Assembly: GCA_002784465.1 (NCBI GenBank)
Contig: PFLE01000011.1
Coordinates: 69,966-125,678 of the forward strand
Source of the DNA: Candidatus Shapirobacteria bacterium CG_4_10_14_0_8_um_filter_39_15
Lineage (GTDB): Bacteria; Patescibacteriota; Microgenomatia; UM-FILTER-39-15
Length of the DNA: 55,713 nucleotides
Reading direction: 5' to 3'
Positions 1-41,966 of the stretch are shown here, one piece after another. How positions within the stretch are numbered: the first letter of the stretch is position 1; every line of letters starts with the position of its first letter. Made by a program: the position numbers and the translations under genes. The notes beneath the pieces were generated by a model, which saw only the letters and a list, made by a program, of their open reading frames with translations, was not told the origin of the DNA and made no database searches.

Positions 1-498
1 TGGAATCACAATCAAAGCATCAACCCGGCTTTTTAAAGCTTCAATCCCTTCTTCCGCCACGACCATTCTTTTGGTTCCTTCAAACGCAAACGGTTTCGTC
101 ACGACGCCAACTGTCAGCGCCCCTTTTTCTCTGGCAATTTCGGCAATAACGGCCGAAGCACCGGTACAAGTTCCGCCGCCCATTCCTCCGGTAATAAAAG
201 CCATATCCGTATCCACTAATAATTGGGCAATTTTTTCTTTTGACTCTTCGGCTGCCTGCCGGCCTAATTCCGGATTACCGCCGACTCCCAAACCGCGGGT
301 TATATTATCACCCAGTTGAAGTTTATTCTGGGCTAAATTCGCCAAAAGCGCTTGAGCGTCGGTATTGATTGCCACAAAATCAACACCCTGAATTTGTCCA
401 TCGGAAATCATTGTATTAATGGCGTTTCCTCCACCACCCCCAACACCCAAAACTTTAATTTTAGCAAATCTGCCTACATCTGGTTTAACAAGTGCCAT
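1..498 (-). CDS. ftsZ: Cell division protein FtsZ (5' part, runs off window)
   Basis: Manual translation from ATG at 498: [30 protein letters not shown]...INTDAQAL...[10 protein letters not shown] (tubulin signature). Follows ftsA. Confidence 0.97.
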
Positions 499-30266: not shown

Positions 30267-30306
30267 ATTAACGGATTAACGGATTAAAAAATTAACGGAT
30301 TAACAC
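30267..30306 (+). repeat. Octamer array (ATTAACGG x5), left arm of four-helix-bundle cassette 1
   Basis: ATTAACGG ATTAACGG ATTAAAAA ATTAACGG ATTAACAC. Confidence 0.92.
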
Positions 30307-37301: not shown

Positions 37302-38828
37302 TTATAATATACCCCACGAATAAACACTAACCGGCCAATAACGGGGTTGCACTGAATATAATCTATCTACTTCCAGTTCCTTTTTTAAATTTTTATGGCT
37401 AAATTCCCTTATATCTTCCGGCACCTGATCATCCCAACTATCCAAAACTAATATACCCTTGGGATATCGTTTAATTATCCCATTAAGGCTCTCGAGATTA
37501 TTAACTATTTTAGCTCCCGAAAAAGTTTCGATTGTTTCGATATCAACTTTTCTTAAAATATAATCTAATTTCCCTTCTCCCAAATACCAAACAGGTAAAT
37601 CACTCCAGTTTGTAATCAGTACTGCTTTGGGGTTATCTTTCATTGTGTTTTCAACAAATCCATAAACCTTTTTCCAATCGACCTCCGGGATTTCCTGCAT
37701 ATCCGCGTTAAGCGAATATTCTTTTTGTGGCGAAAAAGAAATCTTATTAGACTTCCATAATGAAAAAACGACGACAAAAATCAGGATACCAGATACCAGA
37801 TACTGGATATTAGATGCTGGCCCCTGAACCCTTTTCCTAATATCAAATATCAAATATCCAATATCCATCATTCCATAGCTTGCCAACAAAATAATAAAAC
37901 CAAAAATAGGATAGAGATAGCGGGTGAACGGTTGAAAAAGAAAATAAGAAACAATCGGTGCTTGAATTAAGAAAATAAGCAAAAACATAGTAAGTTTTTG
38001 ATATTCTTTTTGCCAAAATAGGAATAATCCGCCAACAAAAGACAAAAAACAAAATGGTAAATAATTATGGGTCATAAAAACACGATAATAAAACAAATTA
38101 TTGGTTCTCCCGATTGAAGACAATATAGAAAAAATTTGAACTTTAAAAATTAAACCAAATAATACTAACAAAAATATCCCTAAAAACATCCATTTTTTTC
38201 CAAACCATGAAGCTTTAAAGATTAATAGATAGATAAAACCGGAGAAAAAAATGGTAAGACCTAAACCATGCATCAACGATGCGAAAACACTACACCCTAA
38301 AAAACCCAAAAAATAACGCCAATTGAATATTTTTTCTTTAGTCAACCTATAAATAAAATAAAACCCTAAAAGATAAAAAAATTGTAAAGCCTGATAGGGT
38401 CTTGCCTGACGGGAAAAGAGAATTTCGATATTCATAAAGGTTATAAAAAAGGTACTTAATAATCCCACCCTCCGGTTAAAAATTTCCTTTCCCAATAAAT
38501 AAATGACTAAAATCGTCAAAACACCAAAAAATACCGAAGGCAAGCGAATAGCAAATTCGTTTAAACCAAAAATACAAGCGGAGAGAGCACTTATCCAATA
38601 TTGCAACCATTGATAAACTCCGGTTGAATAACCATTGGTCAAAGCCGGTTGGCCTCTTTCTAAAATCGCTCGAACAAAAATAGCCACATGATTTTCATCG
38701 GTCCAGAATGAATAATTATTATCCAGTCCATAAATTCGATAATAGAAACCGAGAATTAAAAGAAAAAACAAAATGATATTGGATACTAGATATTTGATAT
38801 TGGATATTGAATCATGAATATTAGTCAT
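37302..38828 (-). CDS. GT-C membrane glycosyltransferase (PMT/AglB-like); N-terminus encoded by a repeat array
   Basis: SFWTDE, EFAIRLPSV and FSRQARPY motifs. Confidence 0.82.
   Translation of the reverse strand: MTNIHDSISNIKYLVSNIILFFLLILGFYYRIYGLDNNYSFWTDENHVAIFVRAILERGQPALTNGYSTGVYQWLQYWISALSACIFGLNEFAIRLPSVFFGVLTILVIYLLGKEIFNRRVGLLSTFFITFMNIEILFSRQARPYQALQFFYLLGFYFIYRLTKEKIFNWRYFLGFLGCSVFASLMHGLGLTIFFSGFIYLLIFKASWFGKKWMFLGIFLLVLFGLIFKVQIFSILSSIGRTNNLFYYRVFMTHNYLPFCFLSFVGGLFLFWQKEYQKLTMFLLIFLIQAPIVSYFLFQPFTRYLYPIFGFIILLASYGMMDIGYLIFDIRKRVQGPASNIQYLVSGILIFVVVFSLWKSNKISFSPQKEYSLNADMQEIPEVDWKKVYGFVENTMKDNPKAVLITNWSDLPVWYLGEGKLDYILRKVDIETIETFSGAKIVNNLESLNGIIKRYPKGILVLDSWDDQVPEDIREFSHKNLKKELEVDRLYSVQPRYWPVSVYSWGIL
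37785..37865. repeat. Cargo-less inverted heptamer arrays, in-frame inside the GT-C gene
   Basis: GATACCA GATACCA GATACTG GATATTA GATGCTG, 18-nt spacer, then TAATATC AAATATC AAATATC CAATATC. Confidence 0.88.
38775..38823 (+). repeat. Heptamer array (GATAYTR), left arm of four-helix-bundle cassette 2
   Basis: GATATTG GATACTA GATATTT GATATTG GATATTG plus two degenerate units. Confidence 0.92.
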
Positions 38829-39205
38829 TTAGATTCGAAACCCTTGGTTTGATAATTGGATTTAATAAAAGCATTCAGGGAGAAATTTAAATCTTCCAAA
38901 AGATTAGATATGGAACTATAATCTTTTTCCGTAATTAAATCGCGATTTTTAAGTAGTTCCAGCCAGTGCAGAGATTCCAAAAGAGAACCTCTGGCATTAT
39001 AGTAGAATTTAATGCGGTCAAGATAGTGAAATCTTCCATACCCTTCGGCAATGTTCGCCCCGATCGAATCAATCGCCCTTATAAATTGATCACCAATTGT
39101 TTTTTTAACCTGCCAAGTGAAATTTTTATATATCTCCCAAGATTTATTACTTATAATCAATGCTTTTTGATAAATTTTTAAATCTTTTAATAAAATATGA
39201 TCCAT
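38825..39205 (-). CDS. Four helix bundle protein (23S rRNA IVP / Avd-like family); likely start MDHILL at 39205
   Basis: DLKIYQKA and DQFIRAIDSIGANIAEGYGRFHY..IKFYYNARGSLLE motifs. Confidence 0.93.
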   Translation of the reverse strand: MDHILLKDLKIYQKALIISNKSWEIYKNFTWQVKKTIGDQFIRAIDSIGANIAEGYGRFHYLDRIKFYYNARGSLLESLHWLELLKNRDLITEKDYSSISNLLEDLNFSLNAFIKSNYQTKGFESK

Positions 39206-39208
39206 CTT

Positions 39209-39243
39209 TAATATCAAATATCTAGTATCTAGTATCTAATATC
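39209..39243 (-). repeat. Heptamer array, right (inverted) arm of cassette 2
   Basis: Minus strand reads GATATTA GATACTA GATACTA GATATTT GATATTA. 39210-39229 is a perfect 20-bp inverted repeat of 38782-38801. Confidence 0.92.
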
Positions 39244-39550
39244 TGTTTTCTTTTACATATTCAATAATCATTTGTATCACTCCAACTACCAAAAACATAT
39301 AGGCCCAGATAGCCGATTTTTCAGCGACCAAATCCTTTTTGAAAATCAGCAAAAAGGGGCACATCGTCAAAAATATTAATGCCCCAGCAATGGAAACTCT
39401 CCCTTTAAATTTGTAACGATAAGCCAATATAGTCCATAAACCAATAAGAAATAAAATCAGTAAATCGGAAGTAAATCTAAAAACAAAAATATCAAAAAAA
39501 ATACCAATTCCGGCGATAATTAATATCAAAAAATTTTTAATGTTTTCCAT
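39236..39550 (-). CDS. Small hypothetical membrane protein (about 4 TM)
   Basis: 104-aa hydrophobic ORF in operon orientation. Confidence 0.75.
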   Translation of the reverse strand: MENIKNFLILIIAGIGIFFDIFVFRFTSDLLILFLIGLWTILAYRYKFKGRVSIAGALIFLTMCPFLLIFKKDLVAEKSAIWAYMFLVVGVIQMIIEYVKENRY

Positions 39551-39659
39551 TTTTGATTACTATCTTTCTCTTTATAAAACTATATTCTAAATATCCCAAA
39601 CATCCTAAAAAGGTAAACAAGGTAATTCCTAAACCAAGATAAAACAACCGCTGGGGCCA
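39537..39659 (-). pseudogene. Orphan duplicate 3' end of the 39975-41966 gene
   Basis: Translates WPQRLFYLGLGITLFTFLGCLGYLEYSFIKRKIVIKNGKH*, versus WPQRLFYLGLFISGLTLFSCLGYLGYDYIKRRKVARNS* in the intact gene. No in-frame start. Confidence 0.85.
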
Positions 39660-39700
39660 TCCCAAGAATTTTTTTCAAAAATTCAGGGATGAATAGCCCC
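39653..39700. repeat. Hairpin immediately downstream of the GIY-YIG gene
   Basis: Minus strand GGGGC-TATT-CATCCC-TGAATTTTT-GAA-AAAAATTC-TT-GGGATG-GCCCC. Confidence 0.8.
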
Positions 39701-39705
39701 CAAAT

Positions 39706-39966
39706 TCATAAATTTTGGTAAAAATTTTCCAATCTTTTGTTAATAAATTTGTATCCCCATTGTCCCTTAAGATACTTCTCACGTCTTTTAGCGTCTTTCT
39801 TATCCAAACAAGCTTCGTAGTAAATCAACTTCAAGGGTATTCTGTGCCTTGTGGAAACGACTAATTTTCCACTATGCTCTTCTATCCTTCTCCTTAAATT
39901 ATCTGTATAGCCGATATATCTTTTGTTATCTTTCTCGCTCAATAAAATATAAACGTAATAAAACAT
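39706..39966 (-). CDS. Small stand-alone GIY-YIG nuclease
   Basis: YYVYIL..DNKRYIGYT.NLRRRIEEH and LIYYEA...A.RREKYLK motifs. Confidence 0.93.
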   Translation of the reverse strand: MFYYVYILLSEKDNKRYIGYTDNLRRRIEEHSGKLVVSTRHRIPLKLIYYEACLDKKDAKRREKYLKGQWGYKFINKRLENFYQNL

Positions 39967-39974
39967 CTTAAAAT

Positions 39975-41966
39975 TTATGAATTTCTTGCGACTTTTCTTC
40001 TCTTAATGTAATCATAACCTAAATACCCTAAACAGGAAAATAACGTCAAGCCACTAATAAATAAACCTAAATAGAAAAGTCGCTGGGGCCAAAATTCAAT
40101 GATAATCTCGTAATCTCTCTTACCACCAGCATCTTCGGGAGTAATATACCAAGAATTCGCGTATCCATTAACCAATAGGTGTCGATCTTCGGAAATTGCC
40201 TTCTTTCCCCAAGTTTCAAAGGTTGCTTTTTCTATAAATATATTTCGGTGAGTCCCTTCTTTAACTTCTCCATCAAAATAGCTCGCCACCGTCTCTCCAT
40301 AATTCTTTAATTCGTCATTTTTTAATCCGTTAATTTCGGAATCTGTTAATCCGTTAATATACAACTTCCATCCTTGATGAAAACTTTCGGAAAATACTAA
40401 GGTATAAGGGTCAACTGCACCCTCTATCTTAACCCGATATTTCGTCGGATTAATTCTAACAAATGTAATTTTTGGTACTACCTTGTCATAATTCGTTAAT
40501 CCGTTAATCTCTTTAATTTCTTTAATAGATTTGAGTATAATCTCCAGTTGATAAATTCTTTCAATCTTTAAGTTTTTAAATTCTACCTTACCGGAATTAT
40601 TGGAATTGGCAGGGGTATAAAAATAAATTTCTGCACCTAAAGTATTTTTGTCGGCTCTTAATATAACGTTAAACGTTTGCCATTCATCGTTTTTACCGTT
40701 TATCAATATTCTACTCAACACTTTCTCTTTTTTGATTACATCGTTTTCTTCTTTACGTTCGATCTTACTCTCCATGATTCCCACGCCTAAATGACTCTCT
40801 TTTACGGTATAGTCAAAACTCAAAGAATAAAGATTATTTGATTGCCAATTATTTATTTCTTGAAAAACAAGATTTTTGACATCTGGGAAAGGGTTCTGGG
40901 TAAATTCCACTCCTCCTTCTTTAACTTTTGTTTCCTCAAATTTCCGCCAATTTGTACCCACCAAATTATCCGATTCCGGCAAATTCAAAACTAATTGATC
41001 ATTACCTTCTTTAAATTCCCTTTCTCCCAGCTTTATCCAACCCCCATTTGTTTCAATTTTATCTCTGTTAATTTCTAGAGTATTTCCATTCATTCCTAAA
41101 TTCATTAACCCATCAATATTGCCAATAAACATTGAATAAGTCCCTTTCTTTGGTATTTTAAAACTATACTCTAAATTCCTTAAATCAAACGGTTCCAGTG
41201 CCTTGATTTCCCCATCCAATACCTCAAAAACTCTTTCCCAATCATTCTCGCTGGGTACGCCTTCAAATTTATCTTGATATATCTCTTCAATTTTTTCTTT
41301 ATGCCTCTCCCAATAAGCTCTTAATTTTATGGTCGACAAATCTCTCAACGCTTTAACCTTTGGCTTATCCAAATCCGTTAATTTCTCAATTTCTTTTACT
41401 GTTTCTTCCATCTTCTTTTGATAAATATCCAATATCCAATATTTAATATCTTTTTCTTTTCCCCATTTTTCGTATTCCGTTATTCTTTTTGAAGCAAAGT
41501 AAAGTTTTTTATCAATCAATTTTCCCGGATCTTTTCTTACCTTCCATTCCTCATATTTCTCTTTCAATCCCGCTAGTTTCCACCAAAAACTTCCCTGACT
41601 ATGCTTAACGTAAGGAAAAAACACGCTGTTTTTTAAGCTTTCCCTTTTCTCAATATCCAATATCAAATATCCAATATCCTTTTTTTCTCCTTTAATAAAA
41701 AATTCATCCGCCCTGTCTTTTAATCCATTAATTCTTGAATCTGTTAATCCGTTAATCGTGTCTAAATATATCCCCGATCTAATTTTGTAATCTTCAAACC
41801 CCAAAATATCAAGCAAATTTTTAGTATCTAAATTTGTATTAATTATGTTTTGAGGAATATAAAATAGAGGCAAGAAATAATCAGTAATCGCCTGCGCTCG
41901 TGAGTTAAAGAAAAAAAATGTAAAGAAAAAGAAGAAGATTATTGCAATTCTAAATATATTTCTCAT
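39975..41966 (-). CDS. Large secreted/membrane-anchored hypothetical protein (YfhO-like C-terminal region), rich in repeat insertions
   Basis: Signal-like N-terminus, INPTKYRV..LVFSESFH.GW, VNGYANSW and a C-terminal TM helix. Confidence 0.75.
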   Translation of the reverse strand: MRNIFRIAIIFFFFFTFFFFNSRAQAITDYFLPLFYIPQNIINTNLDTKNLLDILGFEDYKIRSGIYLDTINGLTDSRINGLKDRADEFFIKGEKKDIGYLILDIEKRESLKNSVFFPYVKHSQGSFWWKLAGLKEKYEEWKVRKDPGKLIDKKLYFASKRITEYEKWGKEKDIKYWILDIYQKKMEETVKEIEKLTDLDKPKVKALRDLSTIKLRAYWERHKEKIEEIYQDKFEGVPSENDWERVFEVLDGEIKALEPFDLRNLEYSFKIPKKGTYSMFIGNIDGLMNLGMNGNTLEINRDKIETNGGWIKLGEREFKEGNDQLVLNLPESDNLVGTNWRKFEETKVKEGGVEFTQNPFPDVKNLVFQEINNWQSNNLYSLSFDYTVKESHLGVGIMESKIERKEENDVIKKEKVLSRILINGKNDEWQTFNVILRADKNTLGAEIYFYTPANSNNSGKVEFKNLKIERIYQLEIILKSIKEIKEINGLTNYDKVVPKITFVRINPTKYRVKIEGAVDPYTLVFSESFHQGWKLYINGLTDSEINGLKNDELKNYGETVASYFDGEVKEGTHRNIFIEKATFETWGKKAISEDRHLLVNGYANSWYITPEDAGGKRDYEIIIEFWPQRLFYLGLFISGLTLFSCLGYLGYDYIKRRKVARNS

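Follow-up and report, generated by a model that had tools for sequence, protein, structure and literature searches.

Free-standing GIY-YIG enzymes of T4-like phages (Seg and Mob, associated with intronless homing) are encoded between or beside host genes, sometimes in tRNA regions. Their spread is ascribed to the repair of breaks, in which the flanks are co-converted. They are proteins of about 200 amino acids (aa) or more with DNA-binding domains, and neither a duplicated gene end nor a hairpin boundary is known to accompany them. Here we describe a locus from Candidatus Shapirobacteria bacterium CG_4_10_14_0_8_um_filter_39_15 (assembly GCA_002784465.1), lying in a 55,713-nucleotide (nt) stretch of contig PFLE01000011.1 (positions 69,966 to 125,678 of the forward strand; hereafter the window). 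In it a gene for a GIY-YIG nuclease of 86 aa, which unlike Seg and Mob has no DNA-binding domain, lies between two diverged copies of the 3' end of a membrane-protein gene.

Three other described systems bear on this arrangement. Fungal mitochondria harbour mobile endonuclease open reading frames (ORFs), termed mORFs, that come with a foreign C-terminus, in atp6 of Allomyces macrogynus and in atp6, atp9, cox2 and nad3 of Glomus (PMC3630166). Ssn proteins (cd10448) are single-domain proteins of about 90–100 aa with a hairpin-forming element next to the gene, a layout that has been likened to that of an insertion sequence (PMC11893778). UPF0213-type proteins are either linked to repair or given no known function (PMC1564403), and no mobile cassette is known for them. 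A study of rRNA-gene insertions in the Candidate Phyla Radiation (CPR) judged GIY-YIG nucleases not to spread by homing (PMC11270868). A literature search returned no bacterial nuclease cassette with a replacement gene end; the supplements of PMC11893778 and PMC11270868 may hold related cases.

Judging from its sequence and surroundings, the 86-aa nuclease gene is probably part of a selfish, homing-like mobile cassette (Table 1). The proposed cassette would be about 440 bp long, with the nuclease gene preceded by a replacement host-gene tail and a short spacer and followed by a conserved hairpin of about 48 nt. These four pieces would occupy one exact position, GAATTT/TGGCCCCAGCG, within the 3' end of a large gene for a membrane protein. 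The frame of this host gene would continue into the cassette-borne tail and stay whole, with the native tail left beyond the hairpin as an orphan, still overlapping the next gene. As in mORFs, an in-frame inserted C-terminus that differs from the native end is followed by an endonuclease ORF (GIY-YIG in Glomus atp9) and, downstream, by the native C-terminus, and occurrence among relatives is patchy (PMC3630166). This layout was found in the window's own genome (G000, 816 kb) and in two more, G038 and G768 (G and L numbers denote genomes and loci, X numbers sequencing runs). What sets the locus apart from mORFs is its setting in bacterial chromosomes of Patescibacteria/CPR rather than organelles, a nuclease of 85–92 aa that is catalytic domain only, a conserved hairpin that marks the boundary and pairs with the target, and the mirrored occurrence of the same nuclease family at tRNA genes. 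With Ssn it shares a small single-domain GIY-YIG gene and an adjacent hairpin (PMC11893778), but it departs from Ssn in having just one copy of the hairpin and a gene that brings along a replacement gene segment, and its nearest solved relative is a UPF0213 protein. UPF0213 and prokaryotic Slx1-like minimal GIY-YIG proteins (1ZG2) are similar in sequence and, like the window protein, have no auxiliary domains (PMC1564403).

Table 1. Features of the insertion locus, in window coordinates; all genes lie on the minus strand
Feature	Coordinates	Strand	Remarks
Host gene, 663-aa ORF	41966..39975	-	end reads ...EFWPQRLFYLGLFISGLTLFSCLGYLGYDYIKRRKVARNS, then stop
Intact insertion site TGAATTT/TGGCCCCAGCG	40098-40081	-	codons ..I-E-F/W-P-Q-R; putative left cassette boundary
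Replacement (functional) C-terminal tail, 38 codons + stop	39975..40091	-	transmembrane helix, then basic residues
Spacer ATTTTAAG, 8 nt	39967..39974	-	tail stop to nuclease start
Single-domain GIY-YIG nuclease gene, 86 aa	39966..39706	-	
Second TGAATTT copy	39708-39702	-	its TGA is the nuclease stop
Insert between second TGAATTT and second TGGCCCCAGCG copy	39701-39660	-	exactly 42 nt
Conserved hairpin, ~48 nt	39653..39700	-	putative right cassette end; outer stem pairs with first bases of second site copy
Orphan native tail WPQRLFYLGLGITLFTFLGCLGYLEYSFIKRKIVIKNGKH, then stop	39659..39537	-	40 codons + stop; opens with TGGCCCCAGCG (39659-39649)
Small membrane protein gene, 104 aa	39550..39236	-	start overlapped 14 nt by orphan

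An earlier reading of the locus, made from the sequence only, had described the succession of tail, GIY-YIG gene, hairpin and orphan, and every part of it was found. The intact site recurs interrupted by the insert, the TGA of its second copy ends the nuclease gene, the inserted bases pair with the GCCCC of the site and the orphan runs into the start of the next gene. Only the position of the intact site needed correction, since it begins at 40098 rather than 40097 and is thus one base longer; the uninterrupted string there, TGAATTTTGGCCCCAGCG (40098-40081), lies where the functional tail begins. The two window tails are 60.5% identical over 38 aa (tblastn within the locus, E 4e-12), and the ORF list gives the orphan as a frame of 42 aa that opens with a TTG at 39665. 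All junctions are spanned by contigs from three other sequencing runs (X4, 1249 nt, 1 difference; X12, 913 nt, 1 difference; X10, 943 nt, 14 differences), so that the assembly artefact which the sequence-only reading had considered is excluded.

Homologous loci were drawn from species genomes (9 loci), metagenomes (38 loci) and a sample of 401 genomes of the class, and removal of duplicates left 49 distinct loci with a recognisable tail. A single tail is present in 44 of them and two copies in the other five, three with the GIY-YIG cassette and two with a methyltransferase insertion. As had been predicted for relatives without the nuclease, the single tail overlaps the start of a homolog of the 104-aa gene in eight loci (G022, L042, L078, L082, L098, L099, L100 and G778); empty one-tail sites were seen in G022, G018 and G778. 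The best tail matches of the window orphan, tied at 23/33, are the L040 orphan and the native tail of L082, which identifies the orphan as the native, operon-overlapping type of tail. The single tails of empty relatives also exclude a standing tandem paralog, the other explanation that had been allowed for, two tails being confined to the five loci that all contain an inserted gene.

The same order of features is found in G038, where a complete host tail is followed by a 92-aa GIY-YIG gene, the hairpin and an orphan that overlaps a 114-aa gene. A phylum-wide search with the nuclease added G768, from another class of the phylum, which has the same layout except that its orphan is followed by a gene other than the 104-aa homolog. 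The window nuclease is 72% identical to that of G768 and 64% to that of G038, and the three cassettes can be aligned from the first site copy through the orphan. In a metagenomic locus, L103, a G038-type tail is followed by a truncated nuclease remnant with stops. No loci beyond these cassette and remnant loci were found when both nucleases were compared with 77 loci using tblastn. Occupancy therefore stands at three intact copies and one remnant among the 49 distinct loci, and among the 33 of 401 class genomes that have the host domain only G000 and G038 are occupied.

The decayed copy is informative as to the left boundary. Of the two loci nearest to L103 in the tree, one, L097, shares 80–93% identity with it up to GAATTTTGGCCCCAGC; after this point identity to L097 falls to about 50% while that to G038 climbs to 76–86%, a level that extends through the tail, its stop and the spacer to the middle of the nuclease gene. 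The similarity partner changes exactly at CCCCAGCG, which is homologous to the window site, so that the left cassette boundary is the string that opens the orphans in G000, G038 and G768. The replacement tail is thus clearly foreign to the gene body in L103, from this breakpoint, and it is so in G038, from the comparison of tail with bodies; for the window itself, where no close relative is available for comparison, the sign is weak. Separately, a 476-nt contig of X4 matches the window only over 39957-40097, with 14 differences, and departs at the site boundary; this one contig hints at a related cassette in a second gene background.

Since illegitimate joints would differ between events, the fact that three intact copies share both boundaries and the hairpin, and that L103 breaks at the same site, counts against an explanation in which the nuclease is a mere passenger. 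On that account a surface and glycosylation locus swaps its 3' segments between lineages by recombination, which is homologous at the left joint and illegitimate at the right one and might, for instance, follow DNA uptake, and the nuclease gene happens to lie downstream of the donor gene. Other genes do occur here: L040, L090 and L113 have no nuclease but a 213-aa S-adenosylmethionine (SAM) methyltransferase gene and an orphan of about 100 aa, a PDDEXK_3 gene lies between host gene and 104-aa homolog in L081, L083, L101 and L106, and genes resembling that for the 23S rRNA intervening-sequence protein (IVP) occupy the same gap in L077, L083 and L105. The locus itself also moves, the host gene being present in just one of eight genomes of the order of G038. 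The methyltransferase event has other boundaries, however, and the same nuclease family leaves the same signature at tRNA genes (see below). We consider the passenger explanation unlikely.

The distribution of the homing-like cassette was compared with a tree of the host domain from which the tail had been omitted. The four occupied loci need four changes on it, of which strongly supported branches force at least three, so that presence and absence at the same site are out of step with the host phylogeny, as is looked for in homing elements. G768 and the empty G778 are sisters (96*), and L103 lies within a starred clade of empty loci. Among replacement tails, G038 pairs with L103 (27/33 identities) and G000 with G768 (21/33), cross pairs having 14–19 of 31–33, and the tails of G000 and G768 both end in RNS before the stop. 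Gene bodies pair oppositely, G000 with G038 (65/94) and G768 with L103 (57/89). From these sequence comparisons the replacement tails appear to track the nuclease lineage and not the host-gene body.

This discordance of tails and bodies counts against a single ancient insertion inherited with the locus, its orphan kept by selection, for instance as a small membrane peptide or for translational coupling to the next gene, and mostly lost since by recombination between the tail copies. Direct repeats would indeed permit such precise deletion, none of the three orphans has lost its open frame, divergence is as great in the cassettes as in their flanks (63–78% identity), and the deep nodes of the tree are weak. 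Against this stand the minimum of three changes, the absence of the 104-aa gene after the G768 orphan and the L103 breakpoint, which by comparison with the near relative L097 points to gain after the two had split. Taking these together, we regard one ancient insertion as very unlikely.

The encoded protein of the proposed cassette matches the Pfam GIY-YIG family (PF01541) with an E-value of 1.9e-15 and 57.3 bits against a cut-off of 22.6; for the G768 nuclease the E-value is 2.9e-17. Y4, Y6, Y17, G19, R27, H31, E51 and E63 are invariant in six aligned copies, and the Tyr-Tyr, Arg, His and Glu among them we take to be the GIY-YIG motif and catalytic-type residues. The closest solved relative is 1ZG2, a UPF0213 protein (E 2.6e-6 over residues 2–67). 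In NCBIfam no family scored above its cut-off with the nuclease or with the products of the host and 104-aa genes. Derivation of the nuclease C-terminus from the host sequence before the site was considered and dropped, because the alignments with the rest of the family extend right up to the query's end.

The hairpin at the right end is stable when delimited tightly: a 56-nt segment folds as DNA at -15.6 kcal/mol (z -3.83), with none of 200 shuffles as good, while a loose 91-nt segment folded as RNA reaches a z of only -1.46 and is equalled by 20 of 200 shuffles. Its consensus across the three genomes has 19 pairs, of which five show compensatory double changes and two are each broken in one sequence, partly through a one-base alignment shift. 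The outer stem joins cassette bases to the site of the genome concerned, as GGGGC/GCCCC (codon TGG) or GGGTT/AACCC (codon CAA), and some of the compensatory changes involve these pairings with the site codon. A covariance-model search of 151 genomes gave strong matches only in G000 and G038; a 35-bit match in G098, inside an unrelated 255-aa ORF, was dismissed as chance. With the same model no hairpin-only footprint was found in 65 sources, in which only the three cassettes matched, and a pattern scan of 77 loci allowing up to five errors found the hairpin in the same three. Rfam gave no family for the hairpin region. The second TGAATTT copy was considered as the remnant of a duplicated target; it may be that or chance, and in G768 TGAATTT is present in the cassette while its own site is GAGTTTTTC.

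A hairpin abutting a small nuclease gene also calls to mind a domesticated host factor of Ssn type, whose role would be to bind the adjoining hairpin in single strands and to tune how incoming DNA recombines at this surface-protein locus, the duplication being a by-product. Neisseria has small single-domain GIY-YIG proteins, flanked by hairpin repeats, that act as single-strand nucleases with site specificity and influence transformation; the repeats cluster near membrane-protein genes (PMC11893778). Ssn hairpin repeats flank the gene and are found genome-wide, in hundreds of copies, whereas here the hairpin occurs once in the 816-kb genome and on one side of the nuclease gene only. The best solved relative is, moreover, a UPF0213 protein, and the decayed copy in L103 and the internal stops of some family copies are a better fit to a selfish gene. 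We accordingly give the Ssn-type explanation scarcely any credence.

For the homing-like cassette, spread would most likely begin when the nuclease breaks an unoccupied copy at the site or close to it, or else beside the hairpin in single-stranded DNA. The break would then be repaired by copying from an occupied copy, the homology arms being conserved host sequence to the left of the site and tail sequence to its right. Such a cassette would be gained, decay and be lost independently of the host gene, as in the homing endonuclease life cycle, which predicts the mixture of intact copies, a decayed copy and many empty sites. Degenerate copies are found both in L103 and, with internal stops, elsewhere in the family. 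The copies in G038 and G768, the decay of L103, its breakpoint, the covariation of the hairpin, the discordance of the tails and the three or more gains or losses required by the host-gene tree all lend weight to the suggestion of the sequence-only reading that a small nuclease travels here as a selfish cassette with a hairpin boundary.

Several points weigh against the homing-like interpretation. Residues 3–69 of the 86 make up the catalytic domain and there is no separate DNA-binding domain such as enzymes of the I-TevI type possess. The functional copy of the tail retains TGAATTT/TGGCCCCAGCG intact and differs only further downstream, the orphan copy being the one split by the 42-nt hairpin; with the 18-nt site thus kept, a simple double-strand cut would also hit occupied genomes. 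Because the three cassettes are no more alike in any segment than are their flanks, no recent transfer has been sampled. The G000 replacement tail best matches the G038 orphan (26/32), which the simplest model does not predict and which calls for gene conversion between the two copies in some ancestor; in G038 itself, 35 identical nt stand at the start of both tail copies. The tail signal linking G000 and G768 is modest and, given the weakness of the deep nodes, repeated precise loss from one old insertion could also yield the distribution. The contigs of four sequencing runs include no empty allele, that is, none that skips the cassette. The methyltransferase gene and longer orphan at the same locus (L040, L113), with their other boundaries, imply that tail duplication can arise here without a nuclease. 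Nuclease activity, the DNA target, nuclease-driven movement and a role for the hairpin are in all this inferred from sequence.

The host protein has a C-terminal membrane anchor and no match in Pfam or NCBIfam; its gene is part of a glycosylation-type cluster. Of 61 related genomes, 14 have a homolog, the open frames measuring about 630–1290 aa, mostly 1100–1290. The window gene starts in a signal-peptide-like manner (41900-41966, minus strand) and overlaps a DegT-type aminotransferase gene. The additional N-terminal part of the G018 homolog is full of hydrophobic stretches; used as a query, it did not reveal the N-terminal half missing from the window gene elsewhere in the genome, an empty result that is uninformative. 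Two short repeat families are strongly over-represented in the window, ATTAACGGATTAA with 9 matches against 0.46 expected (at 40322-40358, 40496-40508, 41720-41756 and 30267-30303) and TTGGATATTKGATATT with 12 against 0.53 (at 37839-37868, 38779-38808, 39210-39225, 41424-41446 and 41652-41681). Both lie in frame within coding regions, reading INGLT.. and ..LILDI.., and at least the INGLT-type segments of the host C-terminal domain are absent from three aligned homologs.

Other genes also lie in the neighbourhood. At L040 (3190-4190; also L090 and L113) the methyltransferase gene lies between a complete host tail and an orphan of the same gene, which has an internal deletion and overlaps a 118-aa homolog of the 104-aa gene. 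In the window the 104-aa gene is followed by a gene for a 23S rRNA intervening-sequence protein (38825-39217, minus strand), and in relatives the gaps around the 104-aa gene hold small genes of multi-copy type, either PDDEXK_3 (GxxExxY-type) or IVP-like. Three of the loci, L041, L044 and L045, are titled Bathyarchaeia archaeon or uncultured Gammaproteobacteria; the loci are typical of Patescibacteria and the labels may be binning or naming errors.

The wider nuclease family is present in 220 of the 401 class genomes, in up to nine copies per genome, some of which have internal stops, the behaviour of a selfish gene. A survey of small GIY-YIG loci, proposed on the strength of the window sequence, brought to light no other CATCCC/GGGATG hairpin, and none of the 28 next-best loci has a hairpin of the window type or a duplicated protein end; what did appear was an analogous partial duplication with a hairpin at tRNA genes, which many of the 28 adjoin. 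There the nuclease ORF runs up to the 5' end of an intact tRNA gene or into it, and a copy of the first 10–21 nt of the tRNA sits 47–93 nt upstream of the ORF. Directly after this orphan fragment stands a stable hairpin, rich in GC (-19 to -28 kcal/mol), and beyond it 5–11 nt of the tRNA resume. An automatic criterion recognised the pattern in seven loci (L054, L056, L061, L063, L068, L070 and L075) and five more were added by eye (L051, L064, L065, L069 and L071), making at least 12 of 28. The arrangement is the mirror image of TGAATTT + hairpin + TGGCCCCAGCG; empty counterparts of the tRNA loci were not found, so that it is on anatomy that this part of the argument stands.

Two more family copies are present in the window's own genome (G000 contig C20, L002 1400-1795 and L003 913-1760). 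One, at a contig end, has a split tRNA-Asn 5' fragment and hairpin upstream and the tRNA downstream, while the other has the transfer-messenger RNA (tmRNA) gene on one side and a comF-like gene on the other. In L049, L055, L057 and L072, too, this comF-like gene comes immediately after the nuclease gene. In L071 a group I intron (102-336, minus strand; 79 bits) interrupts the tRNA gene that follows the GIY-YIG gene.

It is quite possible, if not yet likely, that the minimal GIY-YIG nucleases of 80–95 aa in Patescibacteria represent a widespread, undescribed class of bacterial mobile element, in which a nuclease gene is combined with a hairpin particular to the lineage and with a substitute for part of the target gene. 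Such elements would insert into highly conserved sequence, for instance in tRNA D-loop regions, at tmRNA-adjacent sites or in conserved codons of a surface-protein gene, and would keep the target functional by means of the substitute, leaving an orphan split by the hairpin 5–11 nt from the nuclease side. The hairpin would serve as a recognition structure, as in single-strand-specific Ssn or IS200/IS605-type systems.

The replacement of a gene end has so far been described for fungal mitochondrial mORFs. Small stand-alone GIY-YIG proteins are very common and are usually annotated as repair-related or of unknown function, and the locus described here, with its three relatives, offers a testable case that at least one lineage of them behaves as a selfish cassette. 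It defines a candidate target, GAATTT/TGGCCCCAGCG, and a covarying hairpin of 48 nt, both of which can be tested with the 86-aa protein. The parallel at tRNA genes suggests a general rule, which could account for many of the tRNA fragments and hairpins of reduced genomes that so far lack an explanation, and has a bearing on how genes move between ultra-small bacteria.

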